64,000 bases of DNA from an uncultured Candidatus Poseidoniales archaeon (GTDB lineage Archaea; Thermoplasmatota; Poseidoniia; Poseidoniales; Poseidoniaceae), in the NCBI GenBank assembly GCA_902563095.1, contig CACEWA010000006.1:6713-70712 (forward strand). Direction: 5' to 3'. Position numbers and translations under genes: made by a program. Shown piece after piece: positions 20,584 to 31,261 of the stretch; positions within the stretch are counted from its first letter, which is position 1; each line of letters begins with the position of its first letter. The notes under the pieces were generated by a model that worked only from the letters and a program-made list of their open reading frames with translations, did not search any database and was not told the DNA's origin.

Positions 20584-22254
20584 TCAAAATGGTAAATCAT
20601 CAATTGAAACCCGAGTTTGTTCACCCGAATCTCTATTCCTAAGTGTGACAGTATTATCTGACAGAGATTCATGATCAACAGTAATGCACCAAGGAACTCC
20701 AATCTCGTCAGCTCTAGCGTATCTCTTGCCAATTGAACCGCTTGCATCATAAACTGAAAATATATTCTTGCGACTACAGAGATCTCTGTGTATTTTTTGA
20801 GCGAGTAAATCCATTCCATCTTTCTCGAATAAGGGAAGAACTGTTACATCAACAGGTGCTATAACTTCAGGCAGGGAAAGATATGCATAATCTTCTCCTG
20901 ATTTTTCGGTTTCTGTGTATGAATGGTCCAGCAAATGCCAGATTATCCTATCAATGCCGAACGCAGGTTCAACAACATGTGGGACAAACCATTCTCCATT
21001 TACATTTTCAGTACGTTGCACCCGCTTGACATGTTCTGGTAAAATTTGCAAATCTGTTCCTTCAATATTTTGTGACAACGGGAAACTAGAATCGGATGGT
21101 AAACCTTCAACGAACTGATTCACCTTACCTGCAAGTGATCTGAAAGCAGGTCCTGCTTTTGCGCCATCGGTAGTCCAACCATCAATTTCTACGACCTTGG
21201 GCTCATCAAAAGTTCTCCAAGCACGGAGCCTTTGTCCTGTTGCTTCTTCATGTGCAGTCAAGTCATAGCAACCCCTGTGTGCAATACCTACACATTCTAT
21301 CCATCCATATGAGCCTAAAATTTCTGCATCCCAGCAATCTTGAGCATAATGGGCCATTTCTGTCGACTCATGTTGTCTAAATCGCAAAAACGAGGGATTT
21401 ATTCCCACAGATAACAGAAAATCCATTGTCCAACCCATAAAATAACCAACAGTAGGATGTCTTATGACTCCATTATCGACTGCTTTTTCTAGAGTCATTA
21501 CAACTTCTCCCCCATCATCTGCAATCAATGTAACCGGATTTTTCCAAAGTGAAAAATCATGGATTGGTGCAATCTCTGGATCTATGAAATACTCCAATTC
21601 TGCCATGTTGAATTCTCGCAAACGTATCATTCCTTGACGAGGGCTAATCTCGTTCCGATAGCCTTTTCCTGTTTGAATGGCTCCAAACGGAAGGCGTTCG
21701 CGGAAATGTCGATATATGGAAGTAAAAGATGTGAACATCCCTTGTGCAGTTTCAGGTCGCAAGAAACCTTGACGGCCAGAAAGACCAGCGCCAATCTTTG
21801 TATTAAACATCAAATTCTGTGCTTCAATTTCACCCCAGTCGCTCGCACCACAAGCAGGGCACTGAGGGTTATGTTCTTCGATTAATTTGGACAACTCGTC
21901 TTTAGAAAGAGTGTCAGCATTCGGATGAATATCTTCGACTAAATGGTCTGCTCTACTTGCTTCACCACACTCGCTACATTCAGTTAAATAATCACTAAAC
22001 TCACCGACATGACCACTTGCTTCGAGGACCGAATATGGAGTGATTGTGGGGCAAGAAATCTCTACTATGTTCCCTAAACTTTGCCAATGATCGATCCAAG
22101 TTTGATTGACACGATTACGTAACCGGCCACCTACTGGCCCGAAATCATACAATCCGGCAGCTCCGCCATGAATTTCAAACGCAGGAAGGATTACTCCTCT
22201 GCGTTTTAGCATACCAGTTAGCCTGCCTAAACGCTCAGTGTTGAACTCCTCCAT
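20584..22254 (-). CDS. glyS: Glycyl-tRNA synthetase (archaeal/eukaryotic alpha2 type)
   Basis: 556 aa with ILPAFEIHGGAAGLYDFGPVG, FLRPETAQGMF, GYRNEISPRQGMIRLREFNMAELEYF and the anticodon-binding C-terminus (GKRYARADEIGVPWCITVD). Confidence 0.9.
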   Translation of the reverse strand: MEEFNTERLGRLTGMLKRRGVILPAFEIHGGAAGLYDFGPVGGRLRNRVNQTWIDHWQSLGNIVEISCPTITPYSVLEASGHVGEFSDYLTECSECGEASRADHLVEDIHPNADTLSKDELSKLIEEHNPQCPACGASDWGEIEAQNLMFNTKIGAGLSGRQGFLRPETAQGMFTSFTSIYRHFRERLPFGAIQTGKGYRNEISPRQGMIRLREFNMAELEYFIDPEIAPIHDFSLWKNPVTLIADDGGEVVMTLEKAVDNGVIRHPTVGYFMGWTMDFLLSVGINPSFLRFRQHESTEMAHYAQDCWDAEILGSYGWIECVGIAHRGCYDLTAHEEATGQRLRAWRTFDEPKVVEIDGWTTDGAKAGPAFRSLAGKVNQFVEGLPSDSSFPLSQNIEGTDLQILPEHVKRVQRTENVNGEWFVPHVVEPAFGIDRIIWHLLDHSYTETEKSGEDYAYLSLPEVIAPVDVTVLPLFEKDGMDLLAQKIHRDLCSRKNIFSVYDASGSIGKRYARADEIGVPWCITVDHESLSDNTVTLRNRDSGEQTRVSIDDLPF

Positions 22255-22378: not shown

Positions 22379-22471
22379 TGCCAACAATTGATGTTATTGT
22401 ACATTAGTTAAAACCAAACATTCAAGACCTCGTTGCGCACGCTCCCAATCACGGATAGTGAGTTGATAATA

Positions 22472-25400
22472 ATGGCAAATATCTCATACCTAGAAAATCC
22501 ACTCGAAAGTGAGGATTTGTATGAGAAATTGTGTCAGCCTGTTCGTAATTGGTTCAAACAAAAATTTCCTGATTTTACAGAACCCCAAAAATTAGCAATT
22601 CCATCCATTATGAACAAGGACCATTTGTTACTTTGTTCTCCTACTGGATCCGGTAAAACTCTTACAGCATTTCTAACAATTATTGACGACTTAGTTCGTC
22701 ATGCCTTGGAAGGTACTCTGGAAGAGAGAGTATATTGCTTGTATATTTCACCAATCAAAGCATTAGCTAATGATATTCAAAAGAATCTAATTGGACCTCT
22801 TGAGGAAATCGAGAAAAATTACCTTCCAGATAGAGCTCAAGGTAAAATTAGAGTTGGACTACGTACCGGTGATACTCCACAATCAGAAAGGCAAAAAATG
22901 CTCAGAAAGCCACCCCACATACTTATCACAACTCCAGAAAGTATGGCGATTGCAATATCATCTCCTCGATTCCAACCAATTGTTTCTAATGTCGAATGGA
23001 TAATTATTGATGAAATGCATTCACTAGTTCCATCAAAACGAGGTGTACATCTTGCACTAACTATTTCCTTACTAGACACAATACTTGAACGTCCAGTTCA
23101 AAGAATTGGTATTTCAGCGACTATGGAACCTCTAGAAACTGTTGCTGAATACCTGGTGGCAAGTGATGATAGGGAAAGCAGGAATGAGAATCAATCTGTT
23201 AAAATTGCAAAAATTAGTGGTGCTAGGGAATTAGACTTGGACATACTTTTGTGTTCACCTAAATTTAGCGAACTTTCTGTAATGAAAGTTCTCGAAATGA
23301 ATGTCGAAATGGTTGCCGACCTAATTAGTGCACATACAACAACTCTAGTATTCGCTAATACGAGGAAAATGACTGAAACATTAGTCCAAAAGTTACGTCC
23401 ATTTTTGGGAGATTTGGTTGCTGGGCACCACGGTTCGATGGACAAGAGAATCAGGTTGGATGTAGAAAGAAAACTCAAATTGGGACACCTTAGGGCTGTA
23501 GTTACGTCTTCATCACTTGAAATGGGAATAGATATCGGTTCTGTAGATCTGGTGATTCAAATAGGCTCTCCTGGCGATATAGCAACTGCCCTACAGAGAA
23601 TCGGGAGGGCGGGGCACCATGTTGGAGGCATTCCACGCGCTCGATTCCTACCAACAAGTGTTGATGATTTAATCGAGTTAGCAGCACTACAATCTGCTAT
23701 TCAAACCGGTGACATGGATTTACTTGATTTTCCACAAAATTGTCTAGATGTACTTGCTCAATTCCTAATTGGTTTAGTCATCATTAATGAAAGAGATATT
23801 GATGAAGCGTTTGAAGTTGTAACTAGTACATGGTCATACAGAAACCTAGGATATGACGATTTTATTGAAGTACTTGATATGCTAGAAGAAGAAAGGCGTG
23901 TTTGGATTGATTGGGAAGATAATATCTATGGAAAACGTGGATATTCTAGAATGATATATTATACAAATATAGGTACAATAGCACCTGATAATTCATATCT
24001 TGTTTTCAATGCGGAAGGCAGTATATTAGGACAGTTATCATCATCCTTCGTCGCTAATTTACGAGGAGGAGATGTAATTTTACTAGGTGGTTCAACATAC
24101 CGAGTCACAAATATTCAAGGCACTAGAGTTAATGTAAATTCAGTCACTGGATACAGACCTACTGTTCCTTCTTGGAGCGGTGAAGCCAGGAGTAGGTCTA
24201 GGGAATTATCAAAAGCATTGCTCGATTTGATTGGGCACAGTGTTAATGCTCTTAGAAGGCAGAATGACCCTAGAGTTATTTTGCGAGATGTATACGGTTT
24301 AGGTGAAGGGGTTTCAAACACAATTGCTCGTCATTTAGAGGAGCACACATTGGACTCTTTCCAAGTACCAGACCCCAATAGATTGATCGTCGAACAAATC
24401 GTTTCTGGAGGTATGCCAACATACCTAATCACATCATGTCGTGGCAGAGGTTTCAATACCGCGCTAGGTTATTTCATGGCTGGTTTAGCCGAACAAGACG
24501 GTATTGCAGTATTGGAGTTGTCTTTTGATGAAAATGGACTATTGATTAAAACTAGTCAAGAAGTTGACCCGGGTAAAATGTATGAATATTTCCAATCTAA
24601 TGACCATATGGAAGTTATTGAGCGTTACATTGTGAACACGCAAATTTTCGCTAAGAGATTTAGAGAAATAGCCGGACGCTCGCTAATTATTCCTAAACGA
24701 ATAGGCGCAGAAGAAGTCAGTCCACAACAATTCCAGCAACGAGCTGATGCATTATTACAACGACATCGTTCAATCGAAGATTCACTGCTGATCAGAGAAG
24801 CCAAAGCCGAAATTATGTTTGGTGACATAGATATTATTTCACTGAATCAATTCTTAGAAGCGAGTAAGGAAAATATAGCAAGGATTGTTCATACTAAAGT
24901 CCCCGTACCATCGAGACTTGGAATGAGTCTTTACATGAGCACATTCGAGGATTTGCTTTCAATGAAAACAAGGGCTTTCCTTGTCAAAGATATTGACCCT
25001 GAAATCCTAAAACGACTCCTAGGAAACCGAAGTCTTGCTACAGAATTGAGCGATGAACAAATCGATGAATATTACTCTAGTAAAGTTCCGAAGCCAACTA
25101 ATTCAACCGAGCTCCTTAATCTAATGAGCAAAGGTGGAGGTTTGGATAGAAAATGGGAGAATCCACTATACGCATCCAAACTAAAGGGAATCGAACACAG
25201 CACAATAGAAGGATGGGTTCGAGAATTGGCCAAACAAGGCAAGATTACAAAATTACGCTCGACAGGAACAGCAGAACTGGATGACAAATGGTTCACGACT
25301 TATATGGCAGAGATTCACGGTACTTTGGGGAGAATTTCTGAAGCTGGCGGTAAAGAAATGGAAGATATTCGTGACCTTTACACCAAAGGTATCAGTTATG

Positions 25401-27757
25401 AAGTTGCGACTGAATTTGACGGCCTAAATGGAACCAAATGGGAAAAGCGCAAAATTACCGATCCTCATGAAGCATTAAGAGTGAAAATTATCGAAATGCT
25501 AGGTAGCGAAGGTCCTGCTAAAGGAGACCAGATCAATTCGCGATTACCATTCCCTCAGGGTCAGATTGATTCTATTTTGCATGAATTAGAAATTCGAAAT
25601 GTTATCTCAGTAGGATTCTATAGACAGACTGATGATGCAGAATATATTCTCAAGGTTGATGAGCATAAAATCACCGGCGGAGAAGAAGATGTTGTTGAAT
25701 ACCGATGGGTACAAAACATGGTTATGAAGAAATCATTCGAACAATATGGTGACGGTTTCACAGCATTCGACCAACACATATTATTCCAAAAGCAGCAAGA
25801 GATGCTATATCGTGTCGATGGTTTCCGATATGCCGATTGGAAAGATTTGCAACTAGATTCAGATGTTGTAATGGGAAGGTTATTGCATAATCGAATAGGA
25901 TATACTACGCGTAAGAATATTCCAATGCTGCTGGGATTGAAACCAGAGCCATGGCTAGGTGAAATGGAAAAGTTGATTCTCGAAAAAATTCCAATAGGTG
26001 AAAACTTGACGCGCCAGGAAATTCTTATGGATTTCCCAAAGGGTGAAGATCACAAATCTCTTCAAAGAGATCTAAAGAATGCAATCAGTAATTTGGAAAG
26101 GCAACTATGTTTGGTAAAACAATTCGAAGATGTGAGCGGTCGTAGAAGAAGATTGTCTTTGTTCCACAGAGTTATCGATGTCTATAAGCCAATGGATTTC
26201 GAAGATTCACTAGTTGAAGTCATCAAGAGAATGGGTCCAGTAAAGGCCTTCACTCTGAGATATTATGTCTCTAGAAGTGTTGAAGAATTAGCAATAGCAC
26301 TTCGAAATTTGGAGAATAAAGGAAGAATTGCAAAGATTATGGCATTGGTTCCAGAACCAGAGGCCTTCTATGTTCTTCCTGAAGAAGTTGCAAAACTGAG
26401 CACTCAAAGTAGAGAAGATAGAACATTACGTATTCTAACTCAATCTGACCCATATGTTTCTCGATTCATATGGGAAGTTCGCTCAGTTTTGGATAGAGGA
26501 TGGTACCTGCCAGTATTCAAAGGAGTTGACCCGATAGGCAAGGTATTGATGTTTAAGATAAACGATTATCTTGAAATCAAAGATATGCATATTCCATATG
26601 CTTACTTGGATGAATTCTGTGAAGCATTTGAAAAATTGTTGGACAACCACTCTGACCAACTAGTTGATGTTGCAGTATTGTCGCAATTTAACGGAATTCC
26701 TGTAACTGATTTAGAAGAGGACTCACGAATCGCTCTTGAAGGAATTGGTTTCAAATTAGCAGGAGAGAGAATGATTCGTGGAGGTATTGTAGATCCACAA
26801 CCGAGAGAGATTGCTGAAAGAGCTCTTTTCCATAGACATCACCTGCATCAAAATTCTCGTTTGGAAAATGAAATTCAGGCTCTTGAAAGTGTACAAGAAG
26901 TACGTGATGACTTTGGATTGCGTGGACGAGCAGAAGTCTATAGAGTCAGTTTGAAGAATATGGCAAGCGCCAACCAGTTACATCAAGGAATTAACCTCAG
27001 AGGACATCAAGTTTGGGCATCATATGACCACTTCTCTACATTACTAGCAATCCGTGGTGAAGAACCTAATGAGGAATTATTGGACATCCTTGAATTCTTC
27101 GAAAATCATAGTGACCCAAATCTGTTCATGGAAAGGCATGCAATGAAACGAGCTGCATTCAGGAAATTGATTCAGCCATTACTTCGTAGTGGCCACATGG
27201 TCCAAGATTACCGCGGTGGGTTCCGTTCGGTAGCACCTCGTAGAGGCTTAGACCCTGTTATTCTGCGGAGGGAATACCTACGCAGACTAGTTTCAGATTA
27301 CCCAGTTATCACACTAAAACAATTCACAAGATTGGCTGGAACTCCATTTAAGCCTGAAGAATTGAAAGCGATTTTAACCGAATTTGAAGAAGATTCAACG
27401 CTGATTAAAGGATTCCTAATTCAAGACTTGCACGAGGTTTGCTGGGGTAAGAAGGACTTACTTGATGAAGCTAAGAACGTCCCTCCTATTCGGGATTTTG
27501 TCATTCCTCCTTCAGACCCAATAGCCCCTTATTTCGCAGATGTGCTAAAACAAAAATTCGGCTTTGGTAGCGCATACCTAGTTTTCAGGAATGCAGAACC
27601 TGTGGCCGCATTCAAAGCAAATACTCGCGACAAAATAATCGATGTTACCGATTACGAAGGCTCAGAAAAGGGCTGGAGGATTGTGAAAGAATTCGCTTGG
27701 GAACATCAAATGCCACTAAAAACCGAACTTCGTATCGGTGGAAAACGAATGAAGTAA
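22472..27757 (+). CDS. lhr: Lhr-family superfamily-2 helicase with an unusually long C-terminal extension (about 1761 aa from the ATG at 22472; the ORF opens at the TTG at 22433)
   Basis: Helicase motifs are CSPTGSGKTLTAF (I), IIIDEMHSL (II), SSSLEMGIDIG and QRIGRAGH (VI). Lhr-type downstream domains run to about residue 900. The frame then stays open for about 860 more codons, which contain two YcaQ/AlkZ-like signature segments. Confidence 0.85.
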   Translation: MANISYLENPLESEDLYEKLCQPVRNWFKQKFPDFTEPQKLAIPSIMNKDHLLLCSPTGSGKTLTAFLTIIDDLVRHALEGTLEERVYCLYISPIKALANDIQKNLIGPLEEIEKNYLPDRAQGKIRVGLRTGDTPQSERQKMLRKPPHILITTPESMAIAISSPRFQPIVSNVEWIIIDEMHSLVPSKRGVHLALTISLLDTILERPVQRIGISATMEPLETVAEYLVASDDRESRNENQSVKIAKISGARELDLDILLCSPKFSELSVMKVLEMNVEMVADLISAHTTTLVFANTRKMTETLVQKLRPFLGDLVAGHHGSMDKRIRLDVERKLKLGHLRAVVTSSSLEMGIDIGSVDLVIQIGSPGDIATALQRIGRAGHHVGGIPRARFLPTSVDDLIELAALQSAIQTGDMDLLDFPQNCLDVLAQFLIGLVIINERDIDEAFEVVTSTWSYRNLGYDDFIEVLDMLEEERRVWIDWEDNIYGKRGYSRMIYYTNIGTIAPDNSYLVFNAEGSILGQLSSSFVANLRGGDVILLGGSTYRVTNIQGTRVNVNSVTGYRPTVPSWSGEARSRSRELSKALLDLIGHSVNALRRQNDPRVILRDVYGLGEGVSNTIARHLEEHTLDSFQVPDPNRLIVEQIVSGGMPTYLITSCRGRGFNTALGYFMAGLAEQDGIAVLELSFDENGLLIKTSQEVDPGKMYEYFQSNDHMEVIERYIVNTQIFAKRFREIAGRSLIIPKRIGAEEVSPQQFQQRADALLQRHRSIEDSLLIREAKAEIMFGDIDIISLNQFLEASKENIARIVHTKVPVPSRLGMSLYMSTFEDLLSMKTRAFLVKDIDPEILKRLLGNRSLATELSDEQIDEYYSSKVPKPTNSTELLNLMSKGGGLDRKWENPLYASKLKGIEHSTIEGWVRELAKQGKITKLRSTGTAELDDKWFTTYMAEIHGTLGRISEAGGKEMEDIRDLYTKGISYEVATEFDGLNGTKWEKRKITDPHEALRVKIIEMLGSEGPAKGDQINSRLPFPQGQIDSILHELEIRNVISVGFYRQTDDAEYILKVDEHKITGGEEDVVEYRWVQNMVMKKSFEQYGDGFTAFDQHILFQKQQEMLYRVDGFRYADWKDLQLDSDVVMGRLLHNRIGYTTRKNIPMLLGLKPEPWLGEMEKLILEKIPIGENLTRQEILMDFPKGEDHKSLQRDLKNAISNLERQLCLVKQFEDVSGRRRRLSLFHRVIDVYKPMDFEDSLVEVIKRMGPVKAFTLRYYVSRSVEELAIALRNLENKGRIAKIMALVPEPEAFYVLPEEVAKLSTQSREDRTLRILTQSDPYVSRFIWEVRSVLDRGWYLPVFKGVDPIGKVLMFKINDYLEIKDMHIPYAYLDEFCEAFEKLLDNHSDQLVDVAVLSQFNGIPVTDLEEDSRIALEGIGFKLAGERMIRGGIVDPQPREIAERALFHRHHLHQNSRLENEIQALESVQEVRDDFGLRGRAEVYRVSLKNMASANQLHQGINLRGHQVWASYDHFSTLLAIRGEEPNEELLDILEFFENHSDPNLFMERHAMKRAAFRKLIQPLLRSGHMVQDYRGGFRSVAPRRGLDPVILRREYLRRLVSDYPVITLKQFTRLAGTPFKPEELKAILTEFEEDSTLIKGFLIQDLHEVCWGKKDLLDEAKNVPPIRDFVIPPSDPIAPYFADVLKQKFGFGSAYLVFRNAEPVAAFKANTRDKIIDVTDYEGSEKGWRIVKEFAWEHQMPLKTELRIGGKRMK

Positions 27758-27799
27758 ATTACATAACGCAGTTTTGTGTGTTTATTGAGACTATATTCA

Positions 27800-30700
27800 A
27801 TGGGCAATTCTAGTGTTAGATTAAATAACAAGTTTCTTTGTCAGATAATTGTGAACCGCAAGGCTATACTCCTTACTGCCCTCATGCTATTGGTTTCTGC
27901 AAGCCCGTTTGTTACAACATCATCAGCAAATGAAGTACAGGACATTGAAGTTCTAGATACTGCAGTTTATCCTGGAAACAATCACACCTACCATTTACTT
28001 TCTGCTTCTTCATGGAGTGATGCTGCATCGGTTGCCAGAAGCTTAGGCGGATTTCTAGTTACCATAGATGATGCAGAGGAAGATCAGTGGATTTTTGATA
28101 CATTTGCAGTAGATAACGACACAACTAGACATCTGTGGATTGGATTGTCTGATTATCAAGACGAGGGAGATTACCGCTGGCATGATGGAACGCCATTCAC
28201 TTACAGAAACTGGGGAGATGGTCAACCTGGTAGCGGTGATGATGAAGATTATGTCCATATTACTGGAACTAATATGGGGTCGATAGAACCTGCATCTTGG
28301 AATGACTTAGAGGATGACCCTCAGTATTTCCCTGTATACGGTGTTGTCGAGATTGGAGATGGTGCTGATTATGCACTTCGATTTGATGGAGATGATGACC
28401 ACATCATTATTGATGAAGACTTCCCAGATTGGGGAAATACCTTAGAAATTGAAGCATGGGTAAATGTTGCTGATACTGATGGAATACAATTTGTCACAAT
28501 GTTCGGTGATTATGGCTGGGGACTTTACCTAAATGATGGCTATCTAGCTTACTCCAACGAATACTCCCTCTCTAGAAACCCAACATCCAATGTTTCGATT
28601 CAAGAAAATATTTGGACACATATCAAGGTGGTTGTAAACACAGAAACTGGCGGTGAATTCTTCATTGACAACTCTTCTGCAGGACTTATTGATGTTAATG
28701 ACTCACAAATTCCTTCAGGCGACTTCGGCTCAAACGATTGTTTCCAATCAGGCGAAGAATGTGATGAACTATTTATTGGAAGAATGGGTGCTGGTTGTGA
28801 TTGCAACTATTTCCGTGGAATGATGGATGATGTTCGCATTGGCAATTCACTGAACGAATCGTTATGGATGTTTACTGAAGGCGAGGGAGAATCTACAGAA
28901 GATTCAGAAGGTTTGATTGGTATAATTCACGGTGCTGCATGGGTAATGCCTGATGGCACTATAATTGCACAGGCCTTTGAATTAGAGAATGGTGAATACT
29001 ATGATGGATTCAATGCAAATGCAGGAGATACACTCCTATTCTTCATGGATATACCTGAAAATACTCAGTTTGCATCGCTAAACATGTACTCATGGGATTT
29101 CGAATTTGAAGAAGAATATGAAGAAATCGAATACGAAATCTATCTCGCAAAAGATCGTATTCCTTCAGCATGGGACCATGATTATGAAGTTGAAACATAC
29201 TATGGATTGTATGTATACGAATACTTCGAGTGGCCTGAAGAAGGCACTTATTGGATCACTATTTCTTCAAACTATGATATCGAAGAACTAGAGGTGAATG
29301 CGTACTGGGAAGAAGCACCAGAACCACCCGAACTCGATGAAATGACCGAACTGAACGACGGCATTGCTGTCACAGGTCAGAGAATTACTCGAGATAGCGG
29401 AAAATCACTTTATTTCTATGTAGAACTTGAAGATGAATTAGCTGAATTACGTGTAAAAACTTGGGGAGGACCTGGTGATTGTGAATTGCACATAGCATTA
29501 GATGCTCTTCCATACACTGATGATTGGGGATGGATAGAAGATGGATGGTTTGAAGAGAGTGGTGGAAGTAATGGTCGCCAAATTGGTGGTCAGCAAACTT
29601 CAGACCATTCATATAATTCTGGAAATGATGAGACCGTGCAGATTTTCGATGCTCAACCAGGCATATATTACATCATGATGACATCTTACACTGGATGTCG
29701 AGATGTAACAATTCAGGCGGACTTCACATATGCACCAAATAACGTGGACCCAGAATCTGCAATTGAATTGACTGACGGCATCTCCTATGGTCCATTAAGT
29801 GGTTTCGAAGGACTTGACCAATTCTTCTACATCGATGTACCAGTTGGAACAGAAAGATTGGAAGTTGATTTGAACAATGGTGATGGAGAAGCTAAATTGA
29901 TGATGCGCCTCGACCAATACCCCACATGGTCCACTTATGACAAGCACTCAAATGCCCCTGGTGCAGGTGACAAACTTGGTTTCAATGATCCAACTCCTGG
30001 ACGTTGGTATATCCTCATAGGCAGTGAGGAATATTACAGTCGAATCGATATTACAGCATCATTTGAAGATAGATATGTTTGGACATATGATGGTGAACCA
30101 ATCCAATTATTCAATGAGGAAGAAATCGGTGGTATGAGTGCACCTGAAGATGAAGAATTGTATTTCTTCATAGACTTAGAAGATTCAGCTGCTATGGATT
30201 TGACTATCAAGACATGGGGCGGAGAAGGCGACCTTGGTTTATCTGCTGAAACTGAAGAAATCGAGTGGGATGATTTCGAAGAACGCCCAATGGGTAGACA
30301 ATTTGGTGAAACTCAATTTGAATCAGATTGGAGCGGTGCAGATGAAGAGATTTACATCTTCTTTGCTAGTGGAAGAATTGACATCACGATTTACGCTAAC
30401 ACTGAGATTGAAGATATTTCAATAGTTGCGAAGTGGGATGAAATCGACGAACCAGGACCTGGACCCGGTCCTGAACCCGGACCCGAACCTCCAATCGGTG
30501 ACGACATACTTTCTTGTGACGAGTATGTTAAGGTGATTTTCGAAGAACTAGATCTGAATGGAGATGGAGATATCTCCAGTGATGAATCGTTCGATGGTGA
30601 TGATAACGAATTCGATGAGATTGATATTAACAAAGATGGTGTAATCGACAAAACTGAAGCAATCGTTGCGATATGCACCTGTGAAAATGAACTATATGTT

Positions 30701-31261
30701 ACACTAGAGCAAATCAACACAGATGATAGAGGCGAATTTTCTATTGAATTCCTGTCGAGTATTGCATGGAAAAATGAATACGATTTCTTCGAAATGGATT
30801 CAAACAATAATATGCGAGTAGACTATGATGAAGTCGAGGAATATGGAGAAAATTGTGTAACAACCTATGACCCATTGGATAGGGATGGAGATGGAACTCC
30901 TAACGACAAAGATGCATTCCCCGATGACCCTAGTGAAGATAAGGATACAGATGGTGATGGAGTCGGTGATAATGCAGACATTATCGCTTCAGTGGATAAT
31001 GATGTTATCTGGGTTTCTGCCAGTATTCTTGGGCTTATCCTAGCTACATTCTTGGGAATCATGTTTGTTAGATCACGTAGAGGACCAGAGTATGCTTGGG
31101 AAGAATATCAGAAAGACAGGATGTCTGAATCCATGCTTGCTGGCATGGTTAATTCAGGAGACATGCCTCCTTCACAGGAATCTGTACCCCCGGCACTAGA
31201 CTTAGGGCCGCCTGTAGAAAATGTTCCTGAAGATATGACTGTGTCAGATCTCTACGACTGA
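27800..31261 (+). CDS. Giant acidic mosaic surface protein, in order: signal peptide, C-type lectin-like domain, LamG/ConA-like domain, PPC-like beta-sandwich repeats, PG/PE linker, EF-hand pair, TSP3-like Ca-binding repeats, TM anchor, cytoplasmic tail
   Basis: Signal-like KAILLTALMLLVSASPFVTTSSA. C-type lectin strings GGFLVTIDDAEEDQWI, HLWIGLSDYQDEGDYRWHDGTPFTYRNW and WNDLEDD. LamG-like LRFDGDDDHIIID...YFRGMMDDVRIGN. Repeated KTWGG(P/E)GD motifs. EF-hand loops DLNGDGDISSDE and DINKDGVIDKTE. TSP3-like DRDGDGTPNDKDAFPDDPSEDKDTDGDGVGDNAD. TM segment VIWVSASILGLILATFLGIMFV followed by RSRR and an about 80-aa tail. Confidence 0.8.
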   Translation: MGNSSVRLNNKFLCQIIVNRKAILLTALMLLVSASPFVTTSSANEVQDIEVLDTAVYPGNNHTYHLLSASSWSDAASVARSLGGFLVTIDDAEEDQWIFDTFAVDNDTTRHLWIGLSDYQDEGDYRWHDGTPFTYRNWGDGQPGSGDDEDYVHITGTNMGSIEPASWNDLEDDPQYFPVYGVVEIGDGADYALRFDGDDDHIIIDEDFPDWGNTLEIEAWVNVADTDGIQFVTMFGDYGWGLYLNDGYLAYSNEYSLSRNPTSNVSIQENIWTHIKVVVNTETGGEFFIDNSSAGLIDVNDSQIPSGDFGSNDCFQSGEECDELFIGRMGAGCDCNYFRGMMDDVRIGNSLNESLWMFTEGEGESTEDSEGLIGIIHGAAWVMPDGTIIAQAFELENGEYYDGFNANAGDTLLFFMDIPENTQFASLNMYSWDFEFEEEYEEIEYEIYLAKDRIPSAWDHDYEVETYYGLYVYEYFEWPEEGTYWITISSNYDIEELEVNAYWEEAPEPPELDEMTELNDGIAVTGQRITRDSGKSLYFYVELEDELAELRVKTWGGPGDCELHIALDALPYTDDWGWIEDGWFEESGGSNGRQIGGQQTSDHSYNSGNDETVQIFDAQPGIYYIMMTSYTGCRDVTIQADFTYAPNNVDPESAIELTDGISYGPLSGFEGLDQFFYIDVPVGTERLEVDLNNGDGEAKLMMRLDQYPTWSTYDKHSNAPGAGDKLGFNDPTPGRWYILIGSEEYYSRIDITASFEDRYVWTYDGEPIQLFNEEEIGGMSAPEDEELYFFIDLEDSAAMDLTIKTWGGEGDLGLSAETEEIEWDDFEERPMGRQFGETQFESDWSGADEEIYIFFASGRIDITIYANTEIEDISIVAKWDEIDEPGPGPGPEPGPEPPIGDDILSCDEYVKVIFEELDLNGDGDISSDESFDGDDNEFDEIDINKDGVIDKTEAIVAICTCENELYVTLEQINTDDRGEFSIEFLSSIAWKNEYDFFEMDSNNNMRVDYDEVEEYGENCVTTYDPLDRDGDGTPNDKDAFPDDPSEDKDTDGDGVGDNADIIASVDNDVIWVSASILGLILATFLGIMFVRSRRGPEYAWEEYQKDRMSESMLAGMVNSGDMPPSQESVPPALDLGPPVENVPEDMTVSDLYD
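30452..30493 (+). repeat. Low-complexity Pro-Gly/Pro-Glu linker coding repeat (PGPGPGPEPGPEPP) inside the surface protein gene
   Basis: The sequence cca gga cct gga ccc ggt cct gaa ccc gga ccc gaa cct cca reads in frame. It separates the PPC-like repeats from the EF-hand region. Confidence 0.6.

Follow-up and report, generated by a model that had tools for sequence, protein, structure and literature searches.

An archaeal Lhr helicase of the Poseidoniales with a duplicated AlkZ/YcaQ-like C-terminal domain

What is the long C-terminal half of an archaeal Lhr helicase made of, and what might it do there? The question is raised by an lhr gene on the forward strand of a 64,000-nucleotide stretch of DNA (hereafter the window, meaning the whole stretch that was analysed) from an uncultured Candidatus Poseidoniales archaeon (NCBI GenBank assembly GCA_902563095.1, contig CACEWA010000006.1, positions 6,713 to 70,712). 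The encoded protein of 1761 amino acids (aa) joins an Lhr core (aa 1-850) to a 911-aa extension (aa 851-1761), and is probably an Lhr2-type repair helicase of this Poseidoniaceae (Marine Group II, Thermoplasmatota) archaeon. We show here, using Foldseek and hhalign, that the 911-aa C-terminal domain (CTD) arose by serial duplication of one unit resembling the DNA glycosylases AlkZ and YcaQ, confirming a first-pass annotation of the window that had proposed two tandem YcaQ/AlkZ-like modules fused to an archaeal Lhr core.

Lhr reviews and papers still call the CTD bacterial and absent from archaea, as Buckley et al. (2020; PMC7437997) said of the Lhr C-terminal region, yet a phylum-level archaeal lineage has a larger one, and to this lineage belong the Poseidoniales, which rank with the most abundant archaea in surface ocean waters. 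Long aLhr2 proteins have been reported from Methanomassiliicoccales, where they carry an HTH_42 domain, and from Thermoplasmatales, where their long tails had no Pfam match (Hajj et al. 2021; PMC8301817). We found no description of a duplicated module in the literature on Lhr in Thermoplasmatota, Lhr-CTD or tandem HTH_42. The AlkZ-like extension of archaeal Lhr has thus been only half-noticed in earlier literature, and the duplication would be the new part.

Composition and ancestry of the extension

The gene and its parts lie at the following positions of the window:

22472..27757, strand +: complete lhr gene, 1761 codons plus stop, with an ATG start
22472..25021, strand +: Lhr helicase core, aa 1-850, comprising RecA1, RecA2, winged helix 1 (WH1) and Lhr domain 4 (Pfam, NCBIfam)
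25022..25648, strand +: truncated AlkZ-like unit (N-terminal sub-domain), aa 851-1059, two winged helices without a beta-barrel (hhalign)
25649..26782, strand +: AlkZ/YcaQ-like module A, aa 1060-1437, three winged helices plus beta-barrel, acidic (Foldseek, hhalign, Pfam)
26429..26557, strand +: first 'SDP' peptide, RILTQSDPYV...VLMFK, aa 1320-1362, which opens the beta-barrel of module A (aligned to YcaQ)
26783..27754, strand +: AlkZ/YcaQ-like module B, aa 1438-1761, a second complete unit, basic (Foldseek, hhalign)
27497..27622, strand +: second 'SDP' peptide, FVIPPSDPIA...AAFKAN, aa 1676-1717, which opens the beta-barrel of module B (aligned to YcaQ)

AlphaFold2 models of the extension were computed from family alignments in two pieces, aa 851-1445 (predicted local distance difference test, pLDDT, 79; predicted template-modelling score, pTM, 0.76) and aa 1436-1761 (pLDDT 71, pTM 0.54). 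In Foldseek comparisons, the first piece matched the CTD of Mycobacterium smegmatis Lhr (7lhl, 7lhl_C; E=1.7e-7 over ~636 columns), AlkZ (5uuj; E=2.7e-7, template-modelling score (TM) 0.56 normalised to AlkZ) and DNA-bound YcaQ/AlkX (9zd6; E=3.8e-5). Module B matched the same structures (9zd6, E=9e-9 with TM 0.60; 5uuj, E=1.4e-7; 7lhl, E=1.5e-6), and below AlkZ, YcaQ and Lhr-CTD its list held generic winged-helix proteins only, with TM<0.2. All the structures with which the first-pass annotation had proposed a comparison, AlkZ, YcaQ and the mycobacterial Lhr CTD, are therefore matched by the models of both modules. As modelled, both full modules have the C-shaped HTH_42 fold, in which three winged helices are followed by a C-terminal beta-barrel. 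The truncated unit falls inside the ~636-column alignment to 7lhl, at the position equivalent to WH2-WH3 of the bacterial Lhr-CTD.

At the level of single sequences the repeat escapes detection: neither blastp nor phmmer gave anything significant when one half of the extension was compared with the other, and a half-versus-half profile comparison restricted to Marine Group II sequences was weak (E=0.005). Homology between A and B became clear only once diverse relatives were added to the profiles, when hhalign aligned the two modules end to end over 300 columns (Prob 99.8, E=4e-29); a repeat with 81 family sequences gave E=5e-27. Both modules also aligned with a YcaQ-family alignment of 11 members (the Escherichia coli protein, the chain in 9zd6 and nine homologues that tblastn found on plasmids), module A over 314 columns (Prob 97.7, E=2.5e-12) and module B over 304 (Prob 96.9, E=1.7e-10), and in each case the alignment covers every one of the three winged helices as well as the SPFDP-like motif and the barrel. 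Controls with reversed sequences gave E-values of 0.06-0.66 overall, and about 0.65 for the comparisons of a module with YcaQ.

The two SDP-type peptides had been singled out in the first-pass annotation, and they lie where it had placed them. Profile-profile alignment puts them in register with each other and with the 'LSPFDP' segment of YcaQ, where the counterpart of the first peptide reads 'AVLSPFDPVVW...GYFVLPLL'. Within these peptides, D1326 and P1327 of module A and P1680 and D1682 of module B are kept in at least 80% of the 81 sequences.

The count of two copies did hold for the full modules, but the first ~200 residues of the extension contain an additional, truncated unit that the annotation had missed. 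This segment (aa 851-1050) aligned with module A (Prob 98.0, E=1.5e-13), with module B (Prob 97.2, E=3e-11) and with the YcaQ family (E=6e-7), against E=0.36 when the sequence was reversed, the alignment reaching from the first to the last winged helix of a full unit with gaps for the unit's middle. Because it matches A, B and YcaQ, we read the extension as one truncated AlkZ-like unit followed by two complete ones.

Pfam registers little of this repeat in the window protein itself. The AlkZ-like family (PF06224; gathering threshold 25.9 bits) matched module A at aa ~1160-1329 with 27.0 bits when the extension was scanned from nucleotide 25100, and with 21.5 bits in another cut; the last 390 residues, module B among them, had no Pfam match. 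Among orthologous module B sequences, AlkZ-like was matched in 5/12 and WH4_Lhr in 6/12, and one relative (P0070) carries two AlkZ-like stretches at 56.9 bits. The pair of HTH_42-type Pfam matches foreseen for the window protein was thus seen in this relative, while the window protein itself gave a single marginal one (27 bits). When the PDB was searched by sequence profile, with either the extension or a diverse module B profile as query, the only matches were winged helices of the MarR type, and AlkZ, YcaQ and Lhr-CTD were not recovered; a word-indexed search for homologues of the diverse module B alignment gave nothing beyond Poseidoniales fragments. The missing Pfam match in module B and the MarR-type results would suit a generic string of winged helices of the SelB, RPC62 or MarR type, with a superficial likeness to AlkZ. 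We rejected this candidate, to which we attach almost no probability, on two grounds: Foldseek sets AlkZ, YcaQ and Lhr-CTD (TM 0.54-0.60, E<=1e-4) clearly apart from generic arrays (TM<0.2), and the end-to-end profile alignments with YcaQ take in the beta-barrel and the SPFDP motif as well as the winged helices.

One gene in a widespread family

The open reading frame (ORF) runs uninterrupted from 22433 to 27757 on the plus strand, and counts 1774 codons from a TTG at 22433 or 1761 from the ATG at 22472, in agreement with the single frame of 1761-1774 codons described in the first-pass annotation. Some homologues start at the position equivalent to the TTG, others at that of the ATG. The core carries the superfamily 2 (SF2) signatures that the annotation had listed, CSPTGSGKT (aa 55), DEMH (aa 180) and QRIGRAGH (aa 375), which correspond to Walker A, DExH and motif VI. 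Pfam matched both RecA domains (DEAD, aa 36-219, E=9e-30; Helicase_C, aa 279-382, E=8e-19) and two Lhr-specific families (WH_Lhr, PF19306, aa 409-560, E=2e-26; DEAD_assoc, PF08494, aa 632-816, E=1e-29). The best NCBIfam model, the Lhr-type PRK13767, aligned end to end over aa 5-850 with 746.5 bits, short of its equivalog cut-off of 849 bits. Judged by these sequence matches, the core is a complete but divergent member of the Lhr family rather than a non-member.

A frame of this length could in principle be an artefact, created by a chimeric assembly or by a frameshift or lost stop codon that fused two or three neighbouring genes. Several database entries are indeed 'core only' or 'extension only', and two megabase contigs (L001 and L002), both Pilon-polished long-read assemblies of related Poseidoniales, annotate separate 'core' and 'extension' genes. 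In tblastn alignments, each of these contigs shows one frame change within colinear conserved sequence, but the changes are single-base and fall at unlike sites, ~aa 775 and ~aa 870 (L001:5857-5867 and L002:5905-5942). From their sequence context, we take these breaks to be indel errors or pseudogenes rather than a natural split, and the 'core-only' and 'extension-only' proteins derived from such assemblies to be artefacts. More than 20 independent short-read assemblies continue through the junction between core and extension, a Poseidoniaceae metagenome-assembled genome (MAG) sequence (P0052) is 100% identical over aa 1-1000, and GC content is even over the join suspected near 25.1 kb. Together with the single ORFs of 51 species representatives described below, these observations leave an artefact a vanishingly small likelihood, and the single frame described in the first-pass annotation stands against the chimeric join near 25.1 kb that the annotation had wanted excluded. 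Proteins of 370-450 aa consisting of 'module B only' were considered as stand-alone ancestors and rejected as truncated gene calls, since they start within the barrel of module A.

In a first search, all homologues of the extension came from marine Thermoplasmatota (Poseidoniales, Marine Group II). An exhaustive hidden Markov model (HMM) search of 1.8 billion cluster representatives then yielded 275 relatives, ~30 of them full-length (1660-1942 aa) with the whole extension profile matched in one stretch. Between the full-length relatives and the window protein, identity is ~35% in the core and 16-22% in the extension, and both modules are covered in all of them. Other cluster representatives bear names such as 'Thermoplasmata archaeon' or, in IMG, 'ATP-dependent Lhr-like helicase'. 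When GTDB species representatives were scanned with a 3-sequence alignment of modules A plus B from outside Marine Group II (742 residues), 92 loci were found and 80 kept, nearly all spanning query residues 1-735 and labelled Thermoplasmata, Methanomassiliicoccales, Methanobacteriota or Ca. Sysuiplasma. For 55 loci the largest stop-to-stop ORF sits wholly within the fetched sequence, and in 51 of these the ORF is 1797-2048 aa long and contains PTGSGKT and DExH. Given these ORFs and the 92 loci, the architecture is ancient and standard in the phylum rather than a peculiarity of the window.

This distribution contradicts the statement in the first-pass annotation that described archaeal Lhr proteins end at about 900 aa: Hajj et al. 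(2021; PMC8301817) had already reported longer ones, and among Thermoplasmatota species representatives, at least 92 of them, ~1800 aa is the usual length. Its suggestion of a new architecture survives for the duplication, for which we found no description, but not for the long form as such, which is widespread and, as aLhr2 with HTH_42, already reported. About 12 archaeal HTH_42 proteins were counted in Pfam 33 (PMC9040887). As most copies fall under Pfam thresholds, and at least 92 species carry two full units and one truncated unit, this count is a large underestimate; HTH_42 modules are much commoner in archaea than that dozen.

Two features of the wider family deserve mention. Most relatives from outside Marine Group II (e.g. 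P0064, P0070, P0078 and P0111) end in a conserved acidic/aromatic tail, approximately (D/E)(D/E)W(E/D)(L/I)xxWYEKxHGG, at columns ~345-376 of our alignment A4; it is found neither in the window protein nor in other Poseidoniales sequences. This tail may be a partner-docking motif. Two short proteins combine part of module B with unrelated families, FAD-dependent oxidoreductase families in P0314 (477 aa, on a 1.8-kb JGI contig) and NAD kinase families in P0322 (345 aa). Their module B portions are 79-95% identical, and the likeliest origin of both is a miscalled or chimeric ORF on a short contig.

Catalytic positions and possible roles of the two modules

Glycosylases of the HTH_42 family are described by the motifs Q-Phi-D (YcaQ-like), (Q/H)-Phi-Q (AlkZ-like) and (H/Q)-Phi-(S/T)-(D/E) (AZL2) (PMC9040887), the reference in E. 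coli YcaQ being Q45-I46-D47. The corresponding positions of the window protein, and the junction between its modules, are:

25787..25789, strand +: Q1106 of module A, at the YcaQ Q45 position (hhalign column mapping)
26747..26782, strand +: junction of modules A and B, G1426-F...G1437 (by-eye match to the C-terminus of E. coli Lhr)
26903..26911, strand +: R1478-D1479-D1480 of module B, aligned to YcaQ Q45-I46-D47 (hhalign column mapping)

In profile mapping over the 81 sequences, neither module contained a (Q/H)-Phi-(Q/D) or (H/Q)-Phi-(S/T)-(D/E) motif. The position of the Gln in module A is Gly in 61/81 and Gln in the window protein, and is followed by a ~10-column deletion at I46-D47 and beyond. 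The corresponding strand of module B reads L-G-G-L-R-S-D-F-E across the family, with Arg in 73/81, Ser in 66/81 and Asp in 54/81 (the remainder being N, T, E or another residue). As module A lacks the motif and module B keeps the acidic residue alone, neither fits the catalytic definition. The first-pass annotation had implied a glycosylase function and named the QxQ/QxD-type residues as its test; they are present in neither copy.

The second active-site arrangement reported for a related protein is that found in the Lhr-CTD from E. coli, a uracil glycosylase that uses D1536 rather than QxQ (PMC10953399). Aligned by hhalign with the single E. coli Lhr-CTD sequence, A and B gave weak matches that stopped short of the C-terminus, so that D1536 was not mapped. 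By eye, the E. coli end, G1527-F...L-D1536-W-G1538 ('G-F-SSSPQ-G-L-D-W-G'), is spaced like G1426-[FY]-...-L-[AVI]1435-K-G1437, which would place D1536 at I1435 of the window protein, a position occupied by A, V or I across the family.

The two modules are about equally conserved, with 11.6% and 10.8% strongly conserved columns (>=80%) in A and B respectively, and differ in charge. Median isoelectric points (pI) over the 81 family members are 5.2 for module A, 5.4 for the N-terminal sub-domain and 9.2 for module B; in the window protein they are 5.6, 5.3 and 8.0. Three basic residues of module B, R1478, R1486 and K1646, are nearly invariant, and the R1486 position is R or K in 80/81 sequences.

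We consider it probable that, within the duplicated AlkZ-like CTD fused to this Lhr core, module A serves as a scaffold while DNA is bound by module B. By analogy with characterised Lhr enzymes, the core would translocate along single-stranded DNA in the 3'-to-5' direction where forks are damaged or where crosslinks or RNA:DNA hybrids occur. The acidic, motif-less module A would then act mainly as a scaffold and oligomerisation platform, as in mycobacterial Lhr, and the basic module B would be a duplex- or lesion-binding unit that places the helicase on damaged DNA (R1478, R1486 and K1646, with the Asp equivalent to YcaQ D47 kept). Several points weigh against this assignment. The roles of scaffold and DNA binder come from analogy and net charge rather than from a modelled complex, and since Marine Group II proteins lack the acidic/aromatic C-terminal tail, they may interact differently with partners. 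For module B the model is of moderate quality overall (pLDDT 71) and falls below pLDDT 50 around the R-D-D motif; because it is poor there, the mapping onto the YcaQ active site depends on profile alignment alone. In 27/81 sequences the Asp is replaced by N, T, E or another residue, which weakens any catalytic reading.

Alternatively, module B, or both modules, could be an active glycosylase with a new Arg-Ser/Asp-Asp motif, which would act in cis with the helicase to unhook interstrand crosslinks or to remove uracil or damaged bases. The fold is a complete AlkZ/YcaQ fold whose top structural match is DNA-bound YcaQ/AlkX, module B is basic, and the Asp at the catalytic D47 position lies within the well-conserved G-G-L-R-S-D-F-E strand. 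The AZL2 variant, (H/Q)-Phi-(S/T)-(D/E), indicates that the motif tolerates an S-D ending (PMC9040887), the Lhr-CTD from E. coli is active without QxQ (PMC10953399), and an Ogg gene adjoining lhr in one subclade suggests a base-excision context. Yet the Gln/His of all characterised HTH_42 glycosylases is Arg here, or Leu if the register is moved by one; the Asp varies between family members; the residue matching E. coli D1536, which lies where module A ends, appears by eye to be hydrophobic; and the mycobacterial CTD has no detectable glycosylase activity (PMC9841417). On balance we regard an active glycosylase as unlikely, and base excision by module B through a non-canonical Arg-Ser-Asp site as possible but doubtful. 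Should module B nonetheless prove to be a glycosylase with a previously unknown Arg-Ser-Asp strand and module A a decayed scaffold, which we think unlikely, the Thermoplasmatota, with the abundant Marine Group II archaea among them, would have a machine that in one polypeptide first unwinds DNA and afterwards unhooks or excises lesions, with no described counterpart, and the family would be a natural experiment parting the scaffold role from the catalytic role, still disputed for the bacterial Lhr-CTD. At the other extreme, the extension might be purely structural, serving oligomerisation and partner docking and taking no direct part in handling DNA or lesions, with A and B forming an intramolecular pseudo-dimer in place of the bacterial tetramer contacts. 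What has been demonstrated in vivo for the mycobacterial CTD is tetramerisation, in which the DNA groove is buried, the canonical motif is missing from both archaeal modules, and module A is acidic, all of which would suit such a role; an inert scaffold, however, gives no reason for the consistent basicity and conserved Arg/Lys of module B, or for the motif strand being among its best conserved segments, and we hold this explanation to be improbable. A scaffold module A paired with a DNA-binding module B remains the explanation we favour.

Neighbouring genes and known Lhr systems

Upstream of lhr in the window lies a divergent gene on the minus strand (20584..22254) for a 556-aa class II aminoacyl-tRNA synthetase-like protein, with HGTP_anticodon and tRNA-synt_2b matches and weak zinc-ribbon matches near aa 120-145. 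Downstream, a 1161-aa ORF on the plus strand (27776..31261) begins 19 nucleotides past the lhr stop and has C-type lectin, PPC (pre-peptidase C-terminal) and EF-hand matches; its product is probably secreted or surface-located, with no obvious link to lhr. L001 and L002 share this order, with the synthetase-like gene upstream of lhr and the lectin/PPC gene downstream, and clustering of neighbours at related lhr loci revealed no universally conserved partner gene. In 18/80 Thermoplasmata loci, a gene for an Ogg-type 8-oxoguanine DNA glycosylase lies convergent to the long lhr, 150-900 bp downstream; it is absent from the window. An example from the L056-L084 subgroup, L061:6333-7046 (-), matches Pfam OGG_N (E=4e-14) and contains the HhH 'GVGEKVADC', and the Ogg proteins of different loci are 40-67% identical. 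The adjacency of lhr and Ogg recalls the mycobacterial pairing of lhr with nei2.

Compared with the stand-alone glycosylases AlkZ (5UUJ) and YcaQ/AlkX (9ZD6), the archaeal protein repeats the whole fold, including the SPFDP-like entry into the barrel, in module A and again in module B. The archaeal modules differ in being fused to a helicase and arranged in tandem, in having lost the motif (A) or changed it to R-(S/D)-D (B), and in sharing only 9-15% identity with these enzymes.

The aLhr2 proteins of Hajj et al. (2021; PMC8301817) come from the same phylum and are likewise elongated Lhr2 proteins. MAGs labelled Methanomassiliicoccales carry the ~1800-aa form with both modules, and the long aLhr2 proteins very probably belong to the same family as ours. 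Their survey recorded one Pfam domain or none, without the tandem duplication, the truncated third unit, the status of the motif or the Poseidoniales.

The closest parallel is the long bacterial Lhr (bLhr-HTH), known from M. smegmatis (5V9X for the core, 7LHL for the CTD) and from E. coli. Its CTD consists of WH2-WH6 plus a barrel, of which WH4-6 and the barrel are AlkZ-like and the QxQ is missing (PMC8053096). The function of this domain is disputed. In the mycobacterial protein the tetramer buries the putative AlkZ-like DNA groove (PMC8053096), and tetramerisation through the CTD is essential for crosslink repair, with no glycosylase activity detected (PMC9841417), whereas the E. coli CTD acts as a uracil glycosylase; the catalytic D1536 of the latter seems, by eye, not to be conserved in the archaeal family. 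To this dispute the archaeal proteins contribute two paralogous copies with opposite properties, an acidic, motif-less A and a basic B that partly retains the motif, which can be tested separately. The bacterial and archaeal proteins share the same helicase core domains, and in both the core is followed by two winged helices, after which come three more that form one unit with a barrel and lack QxQ. Although sequence likeness between the two CTDs is below the reach of HMMER, Foldseek finds WH2-WH6 and the barrel of the bacterial CTD collinear with the archaeal truncated unit plus module A (aa 851-1445, 636 columns). The bacterial protein ends after this single AlkZ-like unit, by eye exactly at the archaeal A/B junction, whereas the archaeal protein continues with module B, and it is the addition of this second full AlkZ-like unit that makes the archaeal CTD ~260-300 aa longer than its bacterial counterpart.

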